DNA of 64,000 bases from a virus, in the IMG/VR virus record IMGVR_UViG_3300025645_000042, positions 55,102-119,101 of that record, one strand, 5' to 3'. The notes beneath the pieces were generated by a model, which saw nothing but the letters and a program-made list of their open reading frames with translations, searched no databases and was not told the origin of the DNA. This document shows positions 1,502 to 55,700 of the stretch, one piece after another. A program made the translations under genes and the position numbers. Position 1 is the stretch's first letter, and each line of letters starts with the position of its first letter.

Positions 1502-4500
1502 ATGGCAAAAAAACAAACAGTTTTCCAAAGATTAAGTAACACTTTTGGGAAAGAAGGTTTAAACCCAAATGTTGAAAAAAGGAGTAATAAATATTCTCTT
1601 GGTAACAGTAAAGAAATATTACGAACTCAATCTAAACAAGAGTTCGATGTAGCTAAACTACAAGCGCAACAAGATAAGTACTTAGCTGGTATGTGGTCTA
1701 GAGTTGATGGTGAGTTATATCAACAAGCTATTCATTATGAAACTACAAGAGTTGGTTCCTATTCAGATTTTGAAACAATGGAATTTTATCCAGAAATTGC
1801 TGCTACATTAGATGTATTTAGTGAAGAATCAACAACACCAAATGATAAAGGTGATGTTATTAACGTTTACTCTGGTAGTAAAAGGGTTAAAAGAATTCTT
1901 GAAGACTTATTCATAAATAGATTAGATATTCACACATCATTACAAATGTGGGCCAGAAATTTACCAATAAGGAAAGATAGTGTAATTCCATTATTAAATG
2001 GGACTAATAAAACAATTATTGAGATTTCAAAGGAATTAAAAGAAACTCCAGATAAAGAAATCTGGACTTATTCAATTCAAGATGGAACTAAAAATATTTT
2101 ACCAAGTAAAATTGTTTGGTGTGATTTGACTAGAAAAAATAGTGAGTTATATAGAATAACGTTAGATAATGGTACTCATATTGATACCACCCCAGACCAT
2201 GAATTTTTACTAAGAGATGGTTCATATTTACGTGCTGATAAATTAACTGAGGGTCTTAGTCTAATGCCATTCTATACTAAAATTAGTGAAAATGAACGTG
2301 TATCTGGTTATGAGAAAGTTTACAACCCAAATACAAACCACTATAAATTCACACATGGATTAATTGGTCGTGAAATGCATAGAGATTTGAAATATGAAAA
2401 TAGTGTTGATGAAAAGTTTGTTACCCATCACATAGATTTCAATAAATTCAATAACTCACCGTCTAATTTAGTTAGAATGAGTGTTAGTGAACATAATAAA
2501 TATCATGGTAGTTTAGCTGATTTTCACTTGAAGAGTCCTGAAGTCACTGAAAAAAGAATGATTGGTATTAATAAATGGCTTCGTTCTGATGAACGTAGAG
2601 AAATGTTATCTAATAAGATGAAGGGTACATACCCTGACCCATTTAAAAAATATAATTCAAGTTCTTTACATGAAACTCACAATGACATTAGAAGTGATGT
2701 TATGAAAAATTTATGGGGTGATGATGAATATAAATCTAACACATCAAAAAAAATGCGTTATAAATTGAGTGGTAAAGCTATCAACATGATAGAGGTACTT
2801 ATTAAAGAGACTCCAAATTATATGTCATTAGATACTTTATGTGGTAAATTAAAGAATGAACCAAAATTCACCAAAGAATTCATTACATTTAATAAACACA
2901 TTAAGCGTGATGCGATTAAAGGTATAAATAGGAGAACTATAAATGAACTTTTAAAAAGGACGTTTGAAATTGATTATTTAACTTTCGTTGAAGGTTTAAA
3001 GCCTAATATGGTAAATGATAACACTTATATTAGAGCTAAAAATATATCTGAAACTAAAAAAAATAAGACAATTCTTAATCATAAAGTAGTTAGTGTTGAA
3101 TTATTGAGTGAGGGTGATGATGTTTATTGTATGGAAGTGTTAGGACCAAATGGTGAAGGTGATAGACATAATTTCCCAGTTTGTACCAAAGATGATGAAG
3201 GTAATTTTAAACGTGATGGTGTTTTTGTATCCAACTGTAAATATGGTGATAATTTTGTACAATTAAATATTAGTTCTAAAGGTGGCGTTACTGGAGTTAG
3301 ACAATTACCTAACTTTGAGATTGAAAGAAGAGAGAATGATATCAATGGAATTATTTCACCATCTCAATTAGAAGCTATTAATCAAGATGAAACTAGAAAT
3401 AAAACAGTATTCTACTGGAAAGGTAGAGATATTAGTTTTGAATCGTGGCAAATTGCTCACTTTAGACTTTTAGGTGATGATAGAAAATTACCTTACGGTA
3501 CTTCATTTTTAGAAAAAGCAAGACGTATTTGGAAGCAATTAATTTTAGCTGAAGATGCTATGCTTGTTTATCGTGTAACAAGAGCACCAGAAAGAAGAGT
3601 TTATAAGATATTTGTTGGTAATATTGATAATGAAGATGTTGGTGCATACGTGGATGACATAGCTAATAGATTTAAACGTACTCCACTTGTTGACCCACAA
3701 ACAGGTCAAATGGATGTTAGATATAATCAATTAGGTATTGACCAAGATATTTTTATTCCAGTAAGAGATGAAAATGCACAAACACCTATTGATACTTTAC
3801 CAGGTGCGCAGAACTTAGACCAAATTGCTGATATTGAATATTTACAAAGAAAATTATTTACTGCGTTAAGAGTTCCTAAAGCTTTCTTAGGTTTTGAAGA
3901 ACCTCAAGGTGAAGGTAAAAACCTTGCATTACAAGATATTAGATTCTCAAGAACAATAAATAGAATTCAACAGGCATTATTACATGAACTTAATAAGGTT
4001 GCTATTATTCACTTACACTTATTAGGATTCGCTGATGATTTAGATAATTTTACAATTACTTTAAACAATCCTTCAACACAAGCAGAAATGCTTAAAATTG
4101 AGCAGACAGCCGCTAAAGTTTCTTTATATAAAGATGCGGTTGCTGATGCTGGTAATGGATTTGGTTCTATGTCTATGACTAGAGCTAAAAGAGAAATTTT
4201 AGGTTGGAGTGATGATGAAATCAAACAAGATTTACTTGAACAAAGAATCGAGAAAGCAGCTGCTATGGAATTAGAAAATACTGCGAATGTTATTAAAAAT
4301 ACTGGTATCTATGATAGAGTAGATAGAGTTTATGGTGATATGGATATGGCCAAAAAAGGCGGTCAAGTTCCTGAAGATGGTGAAGGTGGTGCCGCTGGAG
4401 GCGGTGGTGCTGGAGGCGGTGGAGGTTTCGGTGGAGGGTTTGATGATGCTGGTTTAGATTTAGAAGGTGACATTGAAGATGCTGAAGCTACTGAAGATAT

Positions 4501-5910: not shown

Positions 5911-6410
5911 TGAAATCGATATTAGATAAATTTTTTCCTGAGAAAAATGAAAATTATAATAAAGCCAAAACTAGTTTAATGGAAATTAAAAAAAGATTTG
6001 ATAGTTTTGTAATTTCATTTCCTGATGTTACACCAAATGAAATAATAATAATTAAAGAACAGTGGGAAAAATTACCACAGAAAATTTCAAAAGGTGTCGA
6101 AGTCATGGGAATAAAAGCTGTTAAAGAATATAAATCTCTTATTTTAGCTTACAAACCAAATTCTTATATTATGCCACACGTACATAATAATTTATATGAA
6201 TATGGGAAAATATTAAAAGGTTCCATTAAAGATAAGTTAACTGGTAAAATATATAAAACTGGTGAGACTTATAAGTTCAACCCTAATCAACCACATTATT
6301 TAAACACCAACGGAAGTAGTTGTATGGTCTATTCTATATTGACCGAGGATTCGAATTTTAATATGAAACCTTTACCAAAAAAATTGAGAGAGACTCTAAA
6401 TCTGACGTAA
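5910..6410 (+). CDS. Cupin-domain protein
   Basis: Cupin motif 1 PHVHNNLYEYGKILKG and motif 2 GETYKFNPNQPH. Confidence 0.7.
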   Translation: MKSILDKFFPEKNENYNKAKTSLMEIKKRFDSFVISFPDVTPNEIIIIKEQWEKLPQKISKGVEVMGIKAVKEYKSLILAYKPNSYIMPHVHNNLYEYGKILKGSIKDKLTGKIYKTGETYKFNPNQPHYLNTNGSSCMVYSILTEDSNFNMKPLPKKLRETLNLT

Positions 6411-6504
6411 TTAGGACCTTTCAATAATTCTAAAAATTAAAATACCAGGGTTTACGATACTTACCAGGTCTTGACTTTTAATATATTTTATGTATATTTT
6501 ATAC

Positions 6505-6975
6505 ATGGAAAAAATAAGAGGAACAGAATTTACAATAGATATTAATAATAATATTAATGTTATGTTTGGGTCAGTTGATAAGAACAACCCTAAAACCGTT
6601 TATATAAAATTTAGTGGTTGGGGGAATACTATCGACTTTGACGAAGATTTAGAATATAAAACAATAATTAGAAAAATTACTAAAGAAATTAAGAGGTATA
6701 TTTATTTTAATATAAAACCAAATTTATTCAATAGAGAAATGACCATGGTAGATATGGATATGCGGGAATCTGGAATATCTTCAGAAAAATCTAGTTTTAT
6801 GAGTTGTGAAATCACTTTATTTCAAATGAATAACTTTCTATTGGATAGTGACATCTTAAAAGATGAAATGATAAGATTAATTAAACATGTGTGTGAAGAG
6901 ATATTAAATAAAGATTTATATTTTAAATTTTATAAACATAAAAAACAAGCAAAAAAGAAATTACTAGAAGCCTAA
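6505..6975 (+). CDS. Hypothetical protein (likely start ATG 6505, MEKIRG)
   Basis: ORF track gives 6490. TTGACT(6471)-N16-TATATT(6493) overlaps the first codons, which favours the downstream ATG. Confidence 0.55.
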   Translation: MEKIRGTEFTIDINNNINVMFGSVDKNNPKTVYIKFSGWGNTIDFDEDLEYKTIIRKITKEIKRYIYFNIKPNLFNREMTMVDMDMRESGISSEKSSFMSCEITLFQMNNFLLDSDILKDEMIRLIKHVCEEILNKDLYFKFYKHKKQAKKKLLEA

Positions 6976-7000
6976 ACAATTAAAAAGTTTAGGCTTTTTT
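6968..7000 (+). terminator. Rho-independent terminator
   Basis: aagcctaaac-N9-gtttaggctt followed by a T run. Confidence 0.75.
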
Positions 7001-7012
7001 GTTTGTTTGAGC

Positions 7013-7020
7013 ATATTTAT
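7013..7020 (+). promoter_or_regulatory. ATATTTAT putative late-promoter motif
   Basis: Directly after a terminator and 17 nt upstream of ATG 7038. Confidence 0.55.
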
Positions 7021-7037
7021 TGAGAAAGACGGTAAAT

Positions 7038-7730
7038 ATGACAAATGATTTTAAAGTAATTAGAGGCGGTAAGACTGGAACTGGGTTATTAATTGAAGGT
7101 GACGCTGGTTTCATTGAACCTAGAGACCTACGAAATAAACCGTTTATTAGTGAAGCTAACAAAATAGGTTCGGGTCCAGTTATGTTTGAACCTCTTGAAC
7201 TATTCGTAGTACTACAAAAATACGGCATAGAAAATAGAAACGGTAGAATATACCCAGAAGAAATTTTAAAAAGAGAAGCTAGAAGGTATCAAGAACTTAT
7301 TGATATGAGATTAGCCATAGGTGAGTCTGACCATCCTGAGAGTAGTGTTATTTCAAACAGTAGAGTTTCGCACGAGATTAAAAAAATCTGGTGGGAAGGT
7401 CAAACATTGGTTGGAACTATTGAAATAATAATGTCACCTGGTTTTGTTAATCAAGGGATAATTTCTTGCGAAGGAGACCAAATTGCAAACATGCTTAGAA
7501 AAGGAATTAGAGTTGGTGTTTCATCAAGAGGTGTTGGTTCATTAAATGAGGTTGGTGGAAAATTATTAGTTCAAGATGATTTTGAAATTATCTGTTGGGA
7601 TATTGTAACTTCACCAAGTACACCAGGTTCTTATATGTTTAATAATATAGCTGAAGCTCAGCCATTTATGGAATCTGTTGGTAAAAAAGATAACTTGTTA
7701 ATTGATAAATTAAATAAGTTTTTACTGTAA
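7038..7730 (+). CDS. Prohead core protease (T4 gp21-like)
   Basis: NRNGRIYP, GESDHP, GVSSRGVGS and WDIVTSPSTPG motifs. The TTG start at 7020 lies inside the promoter motif, so ATG 7038 is preferred. Confidence 0.92.
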   Translation: MTNDFKVIRGGKTGTGLLIEGDAGFIEPRDLRNKPFISEANKIGSGPVMFEPLELFVVLQKYGIENRNGRIYPEEILKREARRYQELIDMRLAIGESDHPESSVISNSRVSHEIKKIWWEGQTLVGTIEIIMSPGFVNQGIISCEGDQIANMLRKGIRVGVSSRGVGSLNEVGGKLLVQDDFEIICWDIVTSPSTPGSYMFNNIAEAQPFMESVGKKDNLLIDKLNKFLL

Positions 7731-7798
7731 AAAACAAGGGTTAAAAATAAAAATCATAATTTTTTTTAATGAAATGGCGTATTTTGGTAAAATGAGAC

Positions 7799-7806
7799 AT
7801 ATTTAT
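7799..7806 (+). promoter_or_regulatory. ATATTTAT putative late-promoter motif
   Basis: Upstream of the scaffold/capsid operon (59 nt before ATG 7866). Confidence 0.5.
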
Positions 7807-7865
7807 TAAGTAACTGTGCAACAGTAGTTGCATGATAATCTAAATTACAAAAATTTACAAAACAA

Positions 7866-9539
7866 ATGAAAGACGAAAAAAAGTCTGTAATAGAAGAAGC
7901 CTTAGCGGAATTTACTCTTATTCAAGAGAATTTAAATTCGAATACTAAAGAAATACTTCGTTCGGTAGCGAAAGAAGAAATTACCAGTACGCTAAAAGAG
8001 TCCTTATATGAGGATGATTATGATATCGAAGATATCGAAGACGTTGATGCAGAACCAGAAATGGGAGCTGATGTTGACGCATTACCAGTTGATGACGCAC
8101 CTGAAGCGGGACTAGAACCAGAAATGGGGATGGAACCAGAAGGTGGTTCTGAAGAACTTGGAATTGATGACATAGGTATGGACACTGCGGATGGAGACTT
8201 AGGTCTTGGAGCAGAAGAAGGTGGCGAAGACTACGGAATGGACATGACAGGAGCATCAGACGAGGAAGTTATCTCAGTTTATAAAAAATTAAGCGGAGAA
8301 GACGAAATAGAAGTTGTATCACCTAACGAAGTAATTATTAAAGACCCAAATTCAGGGGCAGAATACAATGTAAAAATGGGTGGTGGTAGTCTTATCGACC
8401 AAGGTGAAATGTCAGCAGACGATTTAGGTTCAGAAATGGATTTAGGTATAGATGCAGAAATGGACGTTGAACCAGAGATAGGAGTAGAACCAGAAATGGA
8501 TACGGAAGTAGGTCCAGAAATGGATTCTGAAGAATCAGAAGAAGAAGTGCCAGCTCCAGCAATGGGTGGTGAAGAATCAGAAGAATCTGAAGGTGAATCT
8601 GAAGAAGAAGAAGAAGAAGAAATGGAAGAGTCTGTAGTTTATGAGATTGAATTATCGGAAGATGAGGCGATTGAAGAAGGAATTGAAAATGACCTTAAAA
8701 TAAACAAGGATAGTAAAATTGGTGCAACCGCTGACGGTAAGCCAAGAACAGCTACAAGTGACGTTACATCAAAAGGTGGTTCATTACCAACTGGAGATAT
8801 AGAAGGTCAAAACGCTCCAAACGATTCTGATTCAGGGGATAACCTTGATGGTGGTTTCACAGAAGACCACAATGGTAGCGGTGATGCACATGCACCACAC
8901 GTTATGGAAAGTGAAGAAGTTGTTGAAACTGAAACAATTGAAGAAACTGACGAAGTAACTGAAGAAGTTGTTGAGGAAGAAGATACAATTGAAGAACACA
9001 TTCCAAAAGGACAAGGTGAAGCGCACAGAATGCCAGCTAAAGCTGACATCGGACAACCAGTTGCACCAGGTGCAAAAGGAGTTAAGGGCGTGAAAGGTGA
9101 GAATGTTGAGTCTAAGAAATTAGTGGAAGCTATTTCTAAGTACAATACATTATTATCTGAAGCTAAAGAACTAAAGAAAGAAAATGACATGTTCAGAAAC
9201 TCTCTTAAAGACTTTAGAAAATCAATTACTGAGACTGCTGTATTCAATACTAATTTAACACACGCTACTAAGTTATTTTTAGAGCACTCTACTACATCAG
9301 TAGAAAAGCAAAATATCTTAAGTAGATTCGATGAAGAAGTTAGTACTATTGAAGAGTCTAAAAAACTGTATAAAGCAATTAGTTCTGAATTAGGAAATAA
9401 AACTCCTATCACAGAAGGAATTGAAAATAAACTCGTGTCTGATAAAACTTCAAGTCAGTCTGCTCAATTAAATGAGACGACAGCTTACGTTGACCCAGCA
9501 CAAAAAAGGGTTCTTGATTTAATTAGAAGAACTAGATAA
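7866..9539 (+). CDS. Prohead scaffold/core protein (gp22-like position), highly acidic
   Basis: Between protease and capsid. Long E/D/G/M-rich middle with EPEMG-like repeats and a coiled-coil C-terminus. Confidence 0.75.
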   Translation: MKDEKKSVIEEALAEFTLIQENLNSNTKEILRSVAKEEITSTLKESLYEDDYDIEDIEDVDAEPEMGADVDALPVDDAPEAGLEPEMGMEPEGGSEELGIDDIGMDTADGDLGLGAEEGGEDYGMDMTGASDEEVISVYKKLSGEDEIEVVSPNEVIIKDPNSGAEYNVKMGGGSLIDQGEMSADDLGSEMDLGIDAEMDVEPEIGVEPEMDTEVGPEMDSEESEEEVPAPAMGGEESEESEGESEEEEEEEMEESVVYEIELSEDEAIEEGIENDLKINKDSKIGATADGKPRTATSDVTSKGGSLPTGDIEGQNAPNDSDSGDNLDGGFTEDHNGSGDAHAPHVMESEEVVETETIEETDEVTEEVVEEEDTIEEHIPKGQGEAHRMPAKADIGQPVAPGAKGVKGVKGENVESKKLVEAISKYNTLLSEAKELKKENDMFRNSLKDFRKSITETAVFNTNLTHATKLFLEHSTTSVEKQNILSRFDEEVSTIEESKKLYKAISSELGNKTPITEGIENKLVSDKTSSQSAQLNETTAYVDPAQKRVLDLIRRTR

Positions 9540-9569
9540 TAAAACAAATAAATTTTAAATAAACAAATT

Positions 9570-11366
9570 ATGTCAAATTTTTTAAATTCAGGTAAAGTTG
9601 GTAATATCGGCTTAAACCACATGAAAACAATACGTGAGAACACTATCAACAAATGGGATTCATTAGGATTCTTAGATGGTCTTAAAGGTCACGTAAAAGA
9701 GAACATCGCTCAATTATATGAAAACGAAGCTTCTCACTTATTAAACGAATCAACTGATGCTTCTAGCTCAGGTTCTTTCGAAACCGTAGTATTCCCTATT
9801 GTTAGGAGAGTATTCTCAAAATTATTAGCTAATGACATTGTGTCTGTACAAGCTATGAATATGCCAATTGGTAAATTATTCTTCTTTGTACCACAAACGT
9901 CATCTAGATATGATGCTACTGGTGATGCTTATGGTGACCCTCATAAAGATGGTCCTCAATATTCTGCACACACTTCAATGGGTTCAGATGGTTTACCAAT
10001 CGTAAGAGGTGTAGACCCTTCATATGCTCCTACTCAGTACTTGAGTAAGAACTTATATGATATTTACTATAATGATGGATTATTTGATGCATCAAAAGGT
10101 GAAATATCAATTATTACTGGTACTGGTACGTTAAAAACGTTAGGTGCGGGTGGTACTTTCACTACAGCTGCTGATTTTGCTGCTCTTCCAACTGCTACTG
10201 ATGGTTCTTTAAGAACTGCAATTTTAGCTGTATCTGGATTTAGCTCAATCAATAAAGGTAGATTAAGTGGACCAGATGGTAATCCAATGGATACTGAATC
10301 TTTCTTAGCGTCTTTAAAAGTTGTTACTAATGGTATCGCTTTAACTGACCAAGATAGTAATGTAATTGTTGCTGATGCAACTGAAGTTCCATTTAGATTG
10401 GTAACTCAAAAATACGGTAAAGGTATCGTATCATACGATGATATTTGTGATGATGCTGGTGTTATTTACTTAGAATTAGATATGACTCACCCTGTAGATG
10501 CTGCTGGTACTTCAACATACGATGGTTACATCGGTGCTGACTTAACATTAGCTTCAGGATTCACATCTTCAGATTTCTCAGTATCTTGGGCAGAATATGC
10601 TACATTAGAACTTGAGACTGAAATGGGAGAAGTATCTTTCAAATTAGACGAAGTAGTTGTTTCTGTAGAAGAAAGAAAATTAAGGGCTACATGGTCTCCA
10701 GAATTAGCGCAAGATGTTAGTGCATTCCACAACATTGATGCTGAAGCTGAATTGACTGCTATGTTATCTGAGCAAGTTGCTGCTGAAATCGATAGAGAAA
10801 TCTTAAGAGATATCAGAAAAGCTGCTGCATGGCAATTGAGATGGGATTGGAACGGATGGAGAAAAGCTTCATTAGCTGCTAATGCTTATACTCAAAAAGA
10901 CTGGAATCAAACTTTAATTACTAAAGTTAACCAAATTTCAGCACAAATCCATAAGTCTACTCTTAGAGGTGGTGCTAACTTTGTTGTTGTATCTTCAGAA
11001 ATTTCTGCTGTATTCGATGATTTAGAGTACTTCCACGTATCTGACGCAAGTCCAGAGCAAGACCAATATAATATGGGTATCGAGAAAATCGGTTCATTAA
11101 GTGGACGTTACCAAGTGTACCGTGACCCTTATGCTCCATCTTGGTCACTTATTATGGGACACAAAGGTAAGTCTTTATTAGACACAGGTTACATCTACGC
11201 ACCTTACGTGCCAATGCAACTTACGCCTACAATGTATAACCCATTCAACTTTGCACCAGTGAAAGGTATAATGACACGTTATGCTAAAAAGGTCGTGAAC
11301 AATAGGTTCTACGGAGCTATTAGAGTTGACGGATTACAAACATTCAACGTAAACGAATTAAGATAA
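9570..11366 (+). CDS. Major capsid protein (T4 gp23-like)
   Basis: VRRVFSKL.A.DIVSVQAM..P.GKLFF, RKLRATWSPELAQD..AFH.IDAEAELT, YAPYVP...F.P.KGIMTRYA motifs. Confidence 0.95.
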   Translation: MSNFLNSGKVGNIGLNHMKTIRENTINKWDSLGFLDGLKGHVKENIAQLYENEASHLLNESTDASSSGSFETVVFPIVRRVFSKLLANDIVSVQAMNMPIGKLFFFVPQTSSRYDATGDAYGDPHKDGPQYSAHTSMGSDGLPIVRGVDPSYAPTQYLSKNLYDIYYNDGLFDASKGEISIITGTGTLKTLGAGGTFTTAADFAALPTATDGSLRTAILAVSGFSSINKGRLSGPDGNPMDTESFLASLKVVTNGIALTDQDSNVIVADATEVPFRLVTQKYGKGIVSYDDICDDAGVIYLELDMTHPVDAAGTSTYDGYIGADLTLASGFTSSDFSVSWAEYATLELETEMGEVSFKLDEVVVSVEERKLRATWSPELAQDVSAFHNIDAEAELTAMLSEQVAAEIDREILRDIRKAAAWQLRWDWNGWRKASLAANAYTQKDWNQTLITKVNQISAQIHKSTLRGGANFVVVSSEISAVFDDLEYFHVSDASPEQDQYNMGIEKIGSLSGRYQVYRDPYAPSWSLIMGHKGKSLLDTGYIYAPYVPMQLTPTMYNPFNFAPVKGIMTRYAKKVVNNRFYGAIRVDGLQTFNVNELR

Positions 11367-11369
11367 TAT
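11301..11369 (+). repeat. Direct repeat copy 1: last 22 codons of the capsid gene
   Basis: aataggttctacggagctattagagttgacggattacaaacattcaacgtaaacgaattaagataatat. Confidence 0.95.
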
Positions 11370-11398
11370 AACTTCTTACTCGTTTCGAGATAATAACC

Positions 11399-11432
11399 AA
11401 AAAGGTCTAGATTTTTCTAGACCTTTTTTTTA
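11399..11432 (+). terminator. Rho-independent terminator after the capsid gene
   Basis: aaaggtctag-attttt-ctagaccttt plus a T run. Confidence 0.85.
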
Positions 11433-11465
11433 TTTATATAAAGAACCATAAATTCTATTATTTAC

Positions 11466-11494
11466 TTGTATTTTACAATATTTATTAGTATACT
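11466..11494 (+). promoter_or_regulatory. Sigma70-like promoter for the HNH gene
   Basis: TTGTAT-N17-TATACT, 6 nt before ATG 11501. Confidence 0.5.
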
Positions 11495-11500
11495 TGCATT

Positions 11501-12178
11501 ATGAAAAAAATAGAATTTATAAAAGAAGATATTAAAGAAATTATTAGGTTGTATAACGAAGAAATGTTAGGTACTCCATCAATTGGTGAAATATTTAATG
11601 TTGGTAAGAAGGTTATTAATCGAACCCTTAAAGAAAATGGTGTTGTAATGGGACCATCTGGTAGGAAATTTACTGGCGGTAAAAGTGTGGCCGATAAACG
11701 TTACAGCGAAAAAAATAAAGAAAAATTAACTGAATACCACAAAGTTTGGTCTAAAAATAATAGAAGTAAATTAAGAGATTATCATTCAGAGTGGCGTGAA
11801 GAAAATAAAGAACATATAAATGAATATAAACGCAATTATGAGCGAATGAAGTGTGCGGCTGACCCAAGGTATAAAATATCTAAAAGAACTCGCACAGCGG
11901 TTTATACATGTCTTAAAGAAGCTAACATATCAAAGTATCGTTCTACGTTTAGTATAATAGGTTATGGTATTGATGAATTAATGGAACATTTGGAGAAACA
12001 ATTTGTTGATGGAATGACTTGGGATAATTATGGTGAGTGGCATGTTGACCATATAAAACCAATGTCATCATTCTCATTTAAGAGCGTTGATGACATTGAG
12101 TTTAAGGAGTGTTGGAAATTGGATAATCTTCAACCGCTTTGGGGTGAGGATAATTTATTAAAAGGGTCATTTTATTAA
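11501..12178 (+). CDS. Free-standing HNH homing endonuclease
   Basis: N-terminal HTH-like segment, basic helical linker, and C-terminal MTWDNYGEWHVDHIKP...NLQPLWGEDNLLK. Confidence 0.85.
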   Translation: MKKIEFIKEDIKEIIRLYNEEMLGTPSIGEIFNVGKKVINRTLKENGVVMGPSGRKFTGGKSVADKRYSEKNKEKLTEYHKVWSKNNRSKLRDYHSEWREENKEHINEYKRNYERMKCAADPRYKISKRTRTAVYTCLKEANISKYRSTFSIIGYGIDELMEHLEKQFVDGMTWDNYGEWHVDHIKPMSSFSFKSVDDIEFKECWKLDNLQPLWGEDNLLKGSFY

Positions 12179-12320
12179 GAATTCAATAAAAATTTAAAAA
12201 TAATCATATTTTTATTAAAACTTTTTAAAATTTGGGACTATTCTATATATGTAGACTTTATAAAAAGTCATGATGTATTACATACTTTGTAATATAAATA
12301 ACAATTAATAATTTTTTTAT

Positions 12321-12512
12321 ATGAAACAATTTTATGAAGGTGATTTATGTAAACATAAATCACAAAATATACTATTTGTTGTTGAAATTGAAGACCATCC
12401 TGATTATACCATAAGTCATGTTAACAAATATGGTGACCTACATCGATTCACAACAAAATTTCATTGTTTGGAACCTGTTAATAAGGGTAATGGGTTGAAG
12501 TTACATACTTAA
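12321..12512 (+). CDS. Small hypothetical protein (63 aa) inside the repeat-bounded cassette
   Basis: ORF whose stop codon abuts repeat copy 2. Confidence 0.4.
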   Translation: MKQFYEGDLCKHKSQNILFVVEIEDHPDYTISHVNKYGDLHRFTTKFHCLEPVNKGNGLKLHT

Positions 12513-12580
12513 ATAGGTTCTACGGAGCAATTAGAGTTGACGGATTACAAACATTCAACATTAACGAGTTAAGATAATAT
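12512..12580 (+). repeat. Direct repeat copy 2: orphan 3' end of a capsid gene (NRFYGAIRVDGLQTFNINELR*)
   Basis: 62 of 66 coding nt identical to 11301-11366. The differences are gct/gca, gta/att and gaa/gag. Confidence 0.95.
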
Positions 12581-12601
12581 CTTAATATCGTAGAGATAGA
12601 T

Positions 12602-12629
12602 AAAAGCCTAGCTAATGCTAGGCTTTTTT
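12602..12629. terminator. Bidirectional terminator
   Basis: aaaagcctagc-taat-gctaggctttt between convergent units. Confidence 0.8.
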
Positions 12630-13196
12630 ATTTAATTTTTTTACTTTTTGAACCGTCCCTGAAGATTTATTTGTTAATGACATCACTTTTCTTATTGAAT
12701 ATCCCATATTTAAAAAGGCTGTAACTTTTTCATTTTCTTTTAAAAAATGCAAATCACTTTTTTTGGACCCTCTTTTACGACCTAATTTACCACCTTTTTT
12801 TATATAAAGTTCTCTACCAGCGTTTAACCTTTTTTTAATTCTTTCTGTTTCTAAAGCAGAATCTTCTATTTGCTTTTTTAAGCTATCGTTTTTATCATTG
12901 AAAGCACAAATTATTTTCACATCTAAAATCTTACAATTATCAATAAAATATTTCAAATATCTTTCTTTTCTAGAAACCCTATTTAATTCAGTTACCAAAA
13001 CAATTTTGATGTTTTTCGTATCTAAAAAATCAATATACTTTTCTACATCAATAAAATTTTTAAAACCACTACAATAAGATTCAAATATTTTGACTATATT
13101 ATATTCAGAATATTTATCAACCAAATGATTTATTTGATAATTTGTATCTTGTTTAACTGTACTACATCTAGCAATTATTATTGCGTTATTTATCAT
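12618..13196 (-). CDS. Small serine recombinase (resolvase/invertase family)
   Basis: ARCST..Q catalytic motif, VTELNRVSR, ETERIKKRL..GR...G..LGR and a C-terminal HTH. Confidence 0.85.
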   Translation of the reverse strand: MINNAIIIARCSTVKQDTNYQINHLVDKYSEYNIVKIFESYCSGFKNFIDVEKYIDFLDTKNIKIVLVTELNRVSRKERYLKYFIDNCKILDVKIICAFNDKNDSLKKQIEDSALETERIKKRLNAGRELYIKKGGKLGRKRGSKKSDLHFLKENEKVTAFLNMGYSIRKVMSLTNKSSGTVQKVKKLNKKA

Positions 13197-13502
13197 TTAG
13201 CCAAATTTTATTTCAGCTTGTTCATCTGTTAATTTATTATCCTCATAAAAAATGGTGTAAAAAGTTTGACCATTTTCTTGAACCCAATATAATTCATAAC
13301 CATCAACGATTTCAACTAATTGAGCTGATTCATAACCGTATAAATCATCATCCTCATATGATGAATATTCTAAACTTCCATCAGAATCATAGGGATAATA
13401 CTCGTCATTTAATTTAAATTCGAAGTATTCAGCTTCATCAATCCCAAAAGCGTCTACAAGGGCCTCTCTAGCTTCTTTATAAGCGTCTATAATATCTTTC
13501 AT
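13197..13502 (-). CDS. Acidic hypothetical protein
   Basis: 101-aa ORF, tightly packed in the minus-strand operon. Confidence 0.6.
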   Translation of the reverse strand: MKDIIDAYKEAREALVDAFGIDEAEYFEFKLNDEYYPYDSDGSLEYSSYEDDDLYGYESAQLVEIVDGYELYWVQENGQTFYTIFYEDNKLTDEQAEIKFG

Positions 13503-13729
13503 TATTGTGGCTTTTCTACTAAAACATATTTAGCATATGAAATTTCATCACCAAATTTATTGGTTCCATTTTCAATTTTGGTGTCAATCTTATAACCTTT
13601 TTGCTTTAACTTATGAATTGTTGCAGCTAATCTAGTTTCACCTAAATGATTGAATGCATAGAATGGACTGATTGAACCATGATTCACTAATGCATCCACT
13701 ACCCTTTGTTTTTTCGTTACTTTACTCAT
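13502..13729 (-). CDS. Winged helix-turn-helix protein
   Basis: QRVVDALVNHGSIS...LGETRLAATIHKLKQKGYKIDT pattern. Confidence 0.65.
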   Translation of the reverse strand: MSKVTKKQRVVDALVNHGSISPFYAFNHLGETRLAATIHKLKQKGYKIDTKIENGTNKFGDEISYAKYVLVEKPQ

Positions 13730-13928
13730 CTTTTTTAAATTTATGTTTATTTATTCTTCGATTAAGGATGTTAAATAATTTATCATCCAATAATTTTTCT
13801 TCTTTTAAGTTTAATGTCATGTACCAGTCATTAAACCCTTCACTTTCCTTATATAAAAAGTCTGTTATTTCATGTACACATTTTCTTAACTCTCGCCCAC
13901 TAACTTTATCTAAATCTGAAATACACAT
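13722..13928 (-). CDS. Hypothetical protein
   Basis: 68-aa ORF overlapping neighbours in operon fashion. Confidence 0.45.
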   Translation of the reverse strand: MCISDLDKVSGRELRKCVHEITDFLYKESEGFNDWYMTLNLKEEKLLDDKLFNILNRRINKHKFKKDE

Positions 13929-14065
13929 TATTTTAAATTTTTATTAATTAATTCTAATTTTCTATTTTCCATTTTATTAATCAAATCTAATGACTTTCGT
14001 ATTGGATTCGTTTCAACCCAGAATTTAGCCCTCTTTAATTCAAGGGTTACTTCTTCCAATGACAT
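13928..14065 (-). CDS. Small hypothetical protein (45 aa, MSLEEVTLELKRAKFW...), not in the ORF track
   Basis: Hand translation; fills the gap between neighbouring minus-strand ORFs. Confidence 0.4.
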   Translation of the reverse strand: MSLEEVTLELKRAKFWVETNPIRKSLDLINKMENRKLELINKNLK

Positions 14066-52700: not shown

Positions 52701-55700
52701 TAATTCTAATACAGATGATTTTACAACTGGCGCAACTTGGAGTTCGGGAACTGAAATAATAGAATTTACTAGACTATCAGGTGGAACATATAATGTAGAC
52801 CTTTCAAATACATATTCATTAACTGGTCATACTCACCCTGAATATCTTACTGGATTCACTCAAACTGATGATTATTTAACTGGTCATACATTTAATACAT
52901 CAACTGGATTATTTGAAAGTACATTACAGAGTGGTTCAACAGTTTCAGTTAATTTAGATGGAAGATATTCATTAACTGGTCATACTCACCCTGAATATCT
53001 TACTGGATTCACTCAAACTGATGATTATGTAACTGGAAGTACATTTAATACTGGTAATGGTATATTAGAGTTTACAAGAATAAGTGGTGGTACGTTTAAT
53101 GTTGATTTGGATGGAAGATATTTAACTGGAAGTACCGAAGATTCAGGTACAACTGTCTTATCACTACATAATCCAGTTGGTACATATTATGATATGGTAA
53201 GTGCGAATTCTGCAACTGGATATACAATCAGTAATGAAGTGTTGGGTGGTTGGGCTAAAGTATTAATTAATGCTAGTGCTGAACCTACGGTTTCTGGTGC
53301 TACCAAAGAATCAAGTATTGAATTTGTATCAGGTGATGATATGTATTTAATTGCATATAATAACGGTGTTGGTAATAAATTTTATATTTTACCTACCACT
53401 GGAACCACAAGTGGTGGTACGGGTGGGTCGTTTGATGATGATTATGTTACTGGAAGTACATTTAATACTGGTGATGGTATTCTAGAATTCACAAGAATAT
53501 CAGGTGGTACATTCAATGTTGATTTGGATGGGAGATATTCATTAACTGGCCATACTCACCCACAATATCTTACTGGATTCACTCAAACTGATGATTATGT
53601 AACTGGAAGTACATTTAACACTGGGACAGGTGATTTAACTCTAATAAGATTATCAGGTGGGACAATTGTCACTAATTTAGATGATAGGTATTCATTAACT
53701 GGCCATACTCATGACATATCTGAAATAAGTGGTTATACTGATACATTTGTAACTGGAAGTACATTTAATACAACTAATGGAATTCTTGAGTTCACCAACA
53801 CATCAGGTGGTACATTCAATGTTGATTTAGATAATAGATATAGTCTCACAGGTCATACTCACGATTTAATTAGTAGAACTGTTGTGGTTGATGCCTCTAA
53901 TTTAGGTAATAGTGGGACTACTAAATCAAAAGTAATTAATTATATTAATTCTTTAGGATATAATAAACAAACAGATAATCCAGACTTATGGTTTAAAGTA
54001 AATCCAAATTATCTAATAAATGCTAATTTAACATTTGATGTTTCTGGTGAACCTTTAGGTTTAACTGTTTCTAGTGGTGGTACAATTTTATATATTAGTA
54101 GACATAACTCATCATTGGTTCAATATAATTTAAGTACACCTTGGGATGTGTCAACCGCAGTTCAGAACACTACCAATGCTACTTTAGGTCAAGGTGGTGG
54201 GTTACATATAACTTCAGATGGTATGCATATAGTATTTTCCAATGGTGATATTACCAGTGGTGATACTACAGTATATTTAATGACTTCTCCACATGATTTA
54301 ACTACTTTATCTGCTATAAGTACAACAGCACTTAGTGCATTTACTGGTGGGGCCCTTAAAGAATTATATATCACTGATGATGGTTTAGAATTTTATGCTA
54401 AAGCAAATACAGAGCTTATACATTATACATTATCAACTCCGTGGGATATTACTACCGCAACTGAAACTGATTCATGGACTAAATCTATAAATCATGGATT
54501 TACTTTTAATTCAGATTTAACTAAAGTTTATATAACTCAAAATGGGGATATTTTAGAAGTATATCCATTATCAAGTGCTGGTGATTTATCTACAGTTGGT
54601 TCACTTGAAAAGTCTATTGATTTGACTTCAGTTATCTCTGGCAATTTTAAAAAAATATTTTTATCACCAAATAATAAAAAACTTATTATCACAAGTTATT
54701 TAGAATCTCCAGATGTTATTACCCTTACATTAAATGTTGCAGATGAAATTGGCTCAATTTATGAAACTGATAATCCTGATTTAGTTATTGGTGACTCTTA
54801 TTATAGATTAATTAATTTTAGTGATGGTATAGTTTCTGGAGTAACAAATGATGACCTTGAAGAAATTGTAAATGGATTATCCACAAGTTTCTATGATTTA
54901 GATAATATCCCAGCATTATCCGATAATTATTTAACTGGTCATACATTTAATACAGCCACTGGTTTATTTGAATCAACTTTACAAAGTGGTGGAACTGTTT
55001 CAGTTAATCTTGATGGTAGATATTTACAAATTACTGGTAGTACTGGGGATGATTACCTTACAGGTGGTACATTTAATACATTAACAGGTGATTTAGATTT
55101 AACACTTCAAAGTGGTTCAACTGTTACGATTAATCTAGATGATAGATATTCATTAACTGGTCATACACACCCTGAATATATTACTGGAAGTACCACAGGA
55201 ACTGATGATTACCTAACTGGTCATACATTTAATACATCAACTGGATTATTTGAAAGTACATTACAGAGTGGTTCAACAGTTTCGGTTAATTTAGATGGAA
55301 GATACTTACTTTTATCCGCAACAACTGGTCAAGCTGCCTTAATATTCTCACCAACTGGAAATACAACAGGTATAATAAAAAGTGGAAGGACTGAAGCTAA
55401 TTATGGTGATATTGGGTTAGAGGCTGTAGATTTAAGTAATTCTATAACTCTTTCAGGGGTTTATGGTGCCACTGGGGACTATTCATTGGCAAGTGGGGAC
55501 CGCTCAACAGCTTCTGGGTTTGCTTCAGTTGCTTTAGGAAATGGTCCAACATCTACTGGAACATCAGCAACATCATTTGGGTTTTTAACTAATTCTTGGG
55601 GAAATGCTTCATTTGTAGGTGGATATTATTCATCTGCAAAAGGTGATTATTCAACTGCTTTTGGTTCTTTCAATAATGCGTTAGGGACTAATTCCACAGC

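Follow-up and report, generated by a model that had tools for sequence, protein, structure and literature searches.

Orphaned capsid gene ends beside an HNH-like endonuclease gene as probable scars of one-sided homing in T4-like phages

A capsid gene with a second, orphaned end

We analyzed a stretch of 64,000 nucleotides (nt) of viral DNA (hereafter, the window), which covers positions 55,102 to 119,101 of the IMG/VR record IMGVR_UViG_3300025645_000042, a virus record of 119 kb. Our subject is the region behind its major capsid protein gene. This gene is preceded by an acidic scaffold-like gene and followed by a gene for an HNH-like protein, a short open reading frame (ORF) of 63 amino acids (ORF63), and then a second copy of the capsid gene's own end (Table 1). 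Homing endonucleases of the free-standing kind are regarded as a force that shapes phage genomes. To our knowledge, the targets of such enzymes are known for just a handful of T4 endonucleases, all of them found at the bench. As detailed below, the arrangement in the window is probably the scar of a one-sided homing event.

The two copies form a direct repeat of 69 nt, in which 65 of the 69 bases are identical, at a spacing of 1211 nt. A search of the whole 119-kb record returned these two copies only (E = 1.9e-31 and 5.1e-26). The mismatches comprise a synonymous change at 11318 (GCT/GCA), a Val/Ile change at 11349 and 11351 (GTA/ATT), and a further synonymous change at 11357 (GAA/GAG). Copy 1 is the true end of the capsid gene. 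Copy 2 is an orphan: it is untranslated, with stop codons closing its frame eight codons upstream and no start codon. Both copies are followed by a strong hairpin and T-run of their own, and the space between them is filled by the HNH-like gene and ORF63, whose stop codon overlaps the junction with the orphan at 12511/12512.

This anatomy agrees with an initial annotation of the window, which had described the duplication with its two synonymous changes and one Val/Ile change, the terminator after each copy, and the two genes in between at a spacing of 1211 nt. The promoter that it had also placed between the copies was not substantiated. Matches to sigma-70-like promoters were no more frequent than in shuffled sequence, and TATAAATA, found at 12293-12300, showed no enrichment in the window. 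A group I intron was considered and rejected, as no Rfam intron match was obtained at E values up to 1 within 9000-14000, and the capsid ORF is unsplit and complete with its own stop codon and terminator.

Table 1 Features of the capsid gene locus (coordinates of the window)
Feature	Position	Strand	Evidence
Major capsid protein gene, Gp23 family, 598 amino acids	9570..11366	+	PF07068, E 1.1e-70; phrog_138, E 9e-65
Candidate target of the nuclease and hotspot of gene conversion at codons 569-583 (protein: TRYAKKVVNNRFYGA)	11274..11318	+	Differences between close pairs; orphan borders
Repeat copy 1: last 21 capsid codons, stop and 3 further nt; functional, probably donor-derived	11301..11369	+	
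Terminator 1: 13-bp stem and T-run	11399..11428	+	Folding z -4.7
HNH-like free-standing endonuclease gene (predicted), 225 amino acids	11501..12178	+	phrog_1035, E 1.1e-11; invariant motif
ORF63, cargo, 63 amino acids	12321..12512	+	No family match
Junction between cargo of the putative donor and broken capsid end of the putative recipient, illegitimate	12511..12512	.	Abrupt onset of capsid homology
Repeat copy 2: orphan, capsid codons 578-598 and stop; probable recipient leftover	12512..12580	+	
Terminator 2: 11-bp stem and T-run; probable capsid terminator of the recipient	12602..12627	+	Folding z -4.9; hairpin aligns with the one in L001
Small serine recombinase gene, 192 amino acids	12618..13196	-	PF00239, E 1.7e-10; phrog_125, 'DNA invertase'

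An HNH-like protein with a DNA-binding head

The HNH-like protein has a helix-turn-helix at its N-terminus, followed by helical repeats and, at the C-terminus, an H-x-D-H...N...N motif, of which H181, D183, H184, N209 and N218 are invariant across 12 homologs of 48-64% identity. Searches of Pfam, NCBIfam and PDB sequences, profile searches of the latter included, gave no match. The AlphaFold model of the protein (pLDDT 84.5) contains a helix-turn-helix, a helical repeat region and a C-terminal strand-strand-helix unit (strands 182-184 and 210-212, helix 216-224). When the whole model was submitted to a fold search, the N-terminal helix-turn-helix alone was matched, with the DNA-binding domain of GcrA reaching Z = 7.9. 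The C-terminal domain by itself gave weak matches (Z <=3.1), HNH nucleases among them (4h9d, Z 3.0; 8ee7, Z 2.6; 5h0o, Z 2.2). Because the fold matches were weak and the searches of Pfam, NCBIfam and PDB sequences came back empty, we name the protein only HNH-like, on the strength of its motif, which is of the classical H-N-N type.

The PHROG family of the protein is labeled 'endonuclease VII', and the protein resembles F-CphI in being a predicted free-standing phage endonuclease with a C-terminal motif of the beta-beta-alpha-metal type. The F-CphI/DHHRN pattern reads D-H-x-H...R...N and does without the central Asn of HNH (PMC6083498), but the protein in the window reads H-V-D-H-I-K, with Lys instead of His at position 186, so that no second His follows D-H-x, and its central N209 is present and invariant. 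Membership in the DHHRN/endonuclease VII-motif group was rejected.

The gene also contains a 29-nt direct repeat at 90-nt spacing (11708-11826), which reflects the helical 'EKNKE...EY' units of the protein. In other phage nucleases, repeats in DNA-binding regions are associated with changes in specificity (PMC10448857).

The HNH gene is tied to one site and patchily distributed

We fetched three sets of relatives, each the best 80 of more than 598 matches: capsid relatives from viral contigs, capsid relatives from metagenomes, and HNH homologs. All of the best 80 HNH homologs (80/80) sit 94-153 nt 3' of a capsid stop codon and in the same orientation, which supports the view of the initial annotation that this is a free-standing, homing-endonuclease-like gene tied to the capsid 3' flank. 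Presence and absence were counted over 127 non-redundant capsid loci (numbered with the prefix L) with enough flank. The HNH gene was present in 26 of them, with 18 state changes on a capsid tree that was built without the last 34 codons of the gene. Capsids that are 90-93% identical may carry HNH proteins just 51-58% identical.

The closest relative, L001, has a capsid 92% identical to that of the window and a remnant of the HNH gene, consisting of its last 41 codons only (94.6% nucleotide identity to the window's gene); the deletion starts in the upstream intergenic region that L001 and the window have in common. Relatives without the HNH gene, a comparison that the initial annotation had called for, possess a single capsid end (L005, L003/L004 and L006/L007, 86-90%). 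The DNA 3' of the HNH gene differs in nearly every lineage. Site-tied, optional and patchy among relatives, the gene is distributed as a free-standing homing endonuclease gene would be, here apparently in a hypervariable spot.

Behind its HNH remnant, L001 encodes four tandem paralogous genes (5999-9344, minus strand) with a repeated motif of ~45 amino acids, W-x-K...GW...EC..HM, which replace the usual neighbors.

The two capsid ends derive from two parental phages

When both copies were aligned with the relatives, it became apparent that the duplication continues, in diverged form, through the 3' untranslated region (3' UTR) and the terminator. The stretch 3' of copy 1 is the allele that follows the capsid stop codon in L005, and the stretch 3' of copy 2 is the allele found in this position in L001, L003 and L006. 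The coding parts of the copies are 94% identical, with silent or conservative changes, and the non-coding parts are far more diverged. As read from these alignments, the copies come from two parental phages, because each has diverged as a working capsid end under purifying selection. A duplication in place was rejected, since an unselected orphan could not have kept its coding part conserved while the 3' UTRs diverged. The two alleles of 3' UTR and terminator also favor the earlier proposal that the functional end arrived with the HNH side and that copy 2 is the displaced old end. One parent would thus have carried the capsid gene, terminator 1, the HNH gene and ORF63, and the other the capsid gene, terminator 2 and the recombinase gene.

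At 12512, capsid homology begins abruptly and nothing to its left is shared, which is why we regard the 12511/12512 junction as illegitimate. ORF63, which ends at this junction, may be a truncated gene. A search of 5.8 billion protein clusters at near lengths recovered only ORF63 itself, and viral contigs held one partial match (23 residues in L083, 57% identity) and no full-length relative. A sliding identity comparison of the window's capsid gene with L001, L005, L003 and L006, which are too diverged for this purpose, revealed no abrupt mosaic boundary 5' of the repeat.

The window comes from a metagenome contig, its two copies have an exact 30-mer in common, and no other viral contig with the junction was found, an exact 23-mer spanning 12511/12512 being absent from viral contigs. 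These observations would suit an assembly chimera in which two strains that occur together, an HNH-bearing and an HNH-less one, were merged. We consider such a chimera very improbable: there is no shared k-mer at the junction of ORF63 and orphan that could mislead an assembler, three unrelated metagenome contigs show the same architecture (see below), and proteins identical to ORF63 and to the HNH protein are on record from four contigs each (eight for the recombinase, five for the capsid), from several sources.

Similar scars recur at other loci

A scan of each locus for a repetition of its own capsid gene end brought up three further cases, whose capsids are 71-75% identical to that of the window. 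At L108, the orphan starts from Y581, the copies enclose an HNH gene fused to a Mom-family domain, and all 8 differences between the copies are synonymous. The orphan of L170 starts from N577, behind an HNH gene and two reverse-strand genes, and the 10 codon differences are again all synonymous. At L010, where the orphan starts from K573-N577, a GNAT-type gene and no HNH gene lies between the copies, which differ by 12 synonymous changes. Together with the window, in which the orphan starts from N578, the left ends of all four orphans fall within nine codons (573-581). The orphans carry their own, different terminator at all scars but L010, and at L108 the equivalent junction truncates the cargo ORF, which is 6 codons shorter than in the related locus L094.

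The four scars are, as far as can be judged from these comparisons, independent events with different cargo. Roughly 100 HNH-bearing loci show no duplication of the capsid end, and for this reason the duplication is evidently a rare by-product and not part of the element.

Next to the terminator of the orphan in the window, on the opposite strand and belonging to the flank on the recipient side, lies the gene for a serine recombinase of the resolvase/invertase type, with a catalytic 'ARCST' motif near the N-terminus and a C-terminal helix-turn-helix. Its position could point to a functional switch, in which the recombinase would excise or exchange the capsid end by way of the two copies. We find this idea scarcely credible. 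The recombinase gene was not found at the orphan loci of L108, L170 and L010, no relative of the protein turned up in viral contigs, none of the fetched relatives carries it, and the copies are direct repeats within coding sequence, with no recognizable recombinase sites.

Several observations concern these loci in their own right. In L108 (1534-2989), as in L094 (ORF from +122 to +1612 after the capsid stop codon), the HNH protein and the Mom-family domain (PF25680, E 6e-25) are encoded in one ORF. The Mom family is the DNA-modification enzyme family of phage Mu, and the joining of a nuclease to a DNA modifier at this site hints at self-protection by modification. In L010, an ORF of 365 amino acids (7141-8238) lies 400 nt beyond the orphan; its N-terminus looks GIY-YIG-like by eye and has no Pfam match, and it could be another nuclease acting at the locus. 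In L109, a second capsid piece, 87% identical, directly follows the capsid terminator (3186-3361) and runs from about codon 367 to the end of the contig, representing either an orphan of far greater length or a fault in the assembly.

Codon differences cluster at the left edge of the repeat

We compared pairs of loci that are >99% identical over the upstream 300 nt, counting differences there and in the 90 nt around codons 560-588. Two pairs with and without the HNH gene showed a dense patch of differences: 9 in the patch versus 1 upstream for L097/L105 (p 1e-5), and 12 versus 1 for L023/L018 (p 1e-7). Similarly, L004/L005, both of which lack the HNH gene, differ at 15 positions in the patch and 4 upstream (p 2e-7). 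In the close pairs, the differences cease by about codons 583-588, and the final 30 nt are identical.

A scan of all 229 codon columns contrasted the 20 nearest pairs with and without the HNH gene with matched pairs in which both members lack it. R579 ranked first of the 229 codons, differing in 19 of 20 pairs compared with 50% of the controls (p 2e-5; Bonferroni 0.0045), G582 ranked third and V576 sixth. Codon choice at K573, V576, R579 and G582 correlates with the presence of the HNH gene, with odds ratios, uncorrected for relatedness, of 10-21 (10 for AAA at K573; 21 for CGC/AGG/CGG at R579). We interpret this as a probable signal of target turnover at codons ~569-583 (11274-11318), straddling the left edge of the repeat. 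Jointly, the borders of the orphans and the patch of synonymous differences predict the target of the nuclease.

The initial annotation had viewed the HNH gene as part of a cassette that brings its own capsid C-terminus, recoded to resist cleavage. Indeed, all four scars are laid out as a replacement end, a terminator, cargo and an old end, and codon choices at 573-583 correlate with the presence of the HNH gene, both of which could be expected of a discrete cassette with fixed ends that integrates at codon 577/578. Other results make this reading improbable. Besides the roughly 100 HNH-bearing relatives that lack the duplication, the cargo and the right-hand junction are different in each case, and the patch straddles codon 577 and stops at ~583-588 ahead of the 30 identical nt, which implies that the left border is not fixed. 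Nor did protective recoding hold up: copy 1 and the codons before it essentially match the allele of L005, which has no HNH gene, both variants of every differing site segregate among relatives, and where the turnover region overlaps the repeat, the synonymous change at 11318 is all that separates the copies. A simple rule by which the functional copy has resistant codons and the orphan sensitive ones was also rejected, as it fits L010 and fails in L170. The further proposal of the initial annotation, that the cassette would be excised by recombination between the copies, is plausible.

One-sided homing as the probable origin of the scars

The reading we prefer, with a probability of roughly 65%, is that the HNH protein cut near codon 577, and that the donor's gene end, HNH gene and cargo were copied and then joined illegitimately to the broken end of the recipient. 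In a mixed infection, the HNH protein would cut a relative lacking the HNH gene within the conserved capsid end, near codon 577 (about 11290-11310). The left broken end would invade the HNH-bearing genome through capsid-gene homology, and repair synthesis would copy from the donor the end of the capsid gene, its terminator, the HNH gene and the adjoining cargo, ORF63. Because each lineage has different DNA beyond the HNH gene, the second end would find no homology, and an illegitimate junction would connect the new strand with the right-hand broken end of the recipient. The last 21 codons, 3' UTR and terminator of the recipient would be left stranded as an untranslated orphan (12512-12640). 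The whole process would amount to one-sided 'intronless homing'. The locus has the features of such a product, namely a homologous left junction, a non-homologous right junction, and retained recipient sequence distal to the break. That the HNH protein was the breaking agent, and where it broke the DNA, is what we infer from the position of the scars and the codon signal.

The same scars might have arisen by illegitimate recombination, out of register and independent of any nuclease, in a hypervariable island where the HNH gene is a passenger. The DNA beyond the capsid terminator is different in almost every lineage, L010 has a GNAT-type gene and no HNH gene between its copies, and, with the HNH gene in ~20% of loci, its presence in 3 of 4 scars is merely suggestive. 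Short orphans are also expected to survive longer than long ones. We nevertheless regard this explanation as rather unlikely, since four independent left ends within nine codons are not expected of random breaks, and since these ends coincide with R579, the codon most strongly linked to the HNH gene, and with the 90-nt patch of differences.

Several points weigh against cleavage by the HNH protein and one-sided repair as the origin of the scars. The structure search did not confirm a nuclease fold, as the best HNH nucleases reached Z 2.2-3.0, and neither Pfam nor NCBIfam recognizes the protein. Neither parental genotypes nor a second contig with the same junction were found; among the best 80 of the more than 598 metagenome capsid matches, the nearest is about 91% identical and no parental genotype appears. 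The cargo of one scar, L010, includes no HNH gene, and the longer survival of short orphans may inflate the clustering of left ends. When restricted to phylogenetically independent pairs, the single-codon tests point in the same direction and are underpowered (median p 0.06-0.13). Finally, the direction at R579 is reversed in the pair L097/L105, and the functional copy of L170 has codons of the HNH-less type and its orphan those of the HNH type. The reversal in L170 would be consistent with HNH lineages that have diverged and differ in specificity.

Relation to known homing systems

Free-standing endonucleases of T4 cut hundreds of base pairs from their own gene and cause localized gene conversion (PMC2988022). 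Like T4 SegF, SegG, SegE and MobE (PMC2988022), the HNH gene is an optional nuclease gene between conserved genes, with a distant, here predicted, target in a conserved neighbor, possible signs of localized conversion around the putative cut and a patchy presence. In contrast to these systems, it belongs to another protein family, it resides in a large group of uncultured aquatic T4-like phages, cleavage is inferred from genomes, and an orphaned gene end is left behind in natural scars. T4 also has a homing-endonuclease-type gene directly behind its major capsid gene: segD lies between genes 23 (capsid) and 24, with its target listed as unknown (PMC2988022). SegD is a GIY-YIG gene antisense to its neighbors, whereas the gene described here is HNH-like and co-oriented, in a terminator-bounded slot of its own.

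One-sided homing with illegitimate junctions was demonstrated experimentally for the T4 td intron by Parker et al. 1999 (summarized in PMC2988022). As in our scars, homology acted on one side, the other junction was non-homologous or microhomologous, and recipient sequence past the break was kept. The td system was an engineered one of plasmid and phage and involved an intron, whereas the scars would be natural, heritable and recurrent products of a free-standing gene that import cargo. Homing endonuclease gene islands of ICP1 and other phages (PMC10448857) and segmental amplification by SegB (PMC13096335) are similar in that nuclease genes cluster beside capsid and other essential genes, where they mark the limits of recombination and can cause structural rearrangements whose junctions are truncated. 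These studies describe boundaries of exchange and tandem amplification, not orphaned gene ends that mark a cut site. The class of mechanism is therefore already known, and its natural fossils are new; the HNH gene itself is a putative, uncharacterized addition to the free-standing homing endonucleases.

The orphaned capsid ends would record where the DNA of the recipient broke, and the patch of synonymous differences marks the same spot. Genomes thus offer a concrete and testable prediction of the cut site for an uncharacterized nuclease family in uncultured phages. The scars would further reveal a natural route, one-sided repair, by which a nuclease can import unrelated cargo beside an essential gene, and this route would help explain the hypervariable region behind the capsid gene. 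In principle, such an outcome is unsurprising to specialists, yet the scars are unusually informative.

A second nuclease family in the same slot

A second nuclease family, of ~530-570 amino acids, occupies the same slot in L018 (5930-7633), L035 (6043-7632), L036 (5976-7565), L058 (5906-7594), L114 (4158-5747) and L115 (5270-6055). At the N-terminus, its helix-turn-helix shares 35-42% identity with the one in the HNH protein; the remaining parts are a zinc finger of the MucR type, a PD-(D/E)xK domain (REase_MTES_1575) and a C-terminus that resembles GNAT. A DNA-binding head common to different nucleases suggests domain shuffling on one target.

We tentatively raise a broader scenario, which we hold to be possible and on balance doubtful: an arms race between the HNH family and capsid codons 569-583, in which diverged HNH specificities would chase synonymous variants of this 45-nt stretch. 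Repeated cutting and one-sided repair would build and reshuffle the hypervariable island of accessory genes behind the capsid gene, including the nuclease-Mom fusions and the second nuclease family with the same DNA-binding head, across a widespread group of aquatic T4-like phages.

Elsewhere among the relatives, the capsid match of L163 (3118-5097) is split into two pieces (amino acids 1-113 and 141-598) that lie 264 nt apart, which may represent an insertion or a very divergent N-terminal segment.

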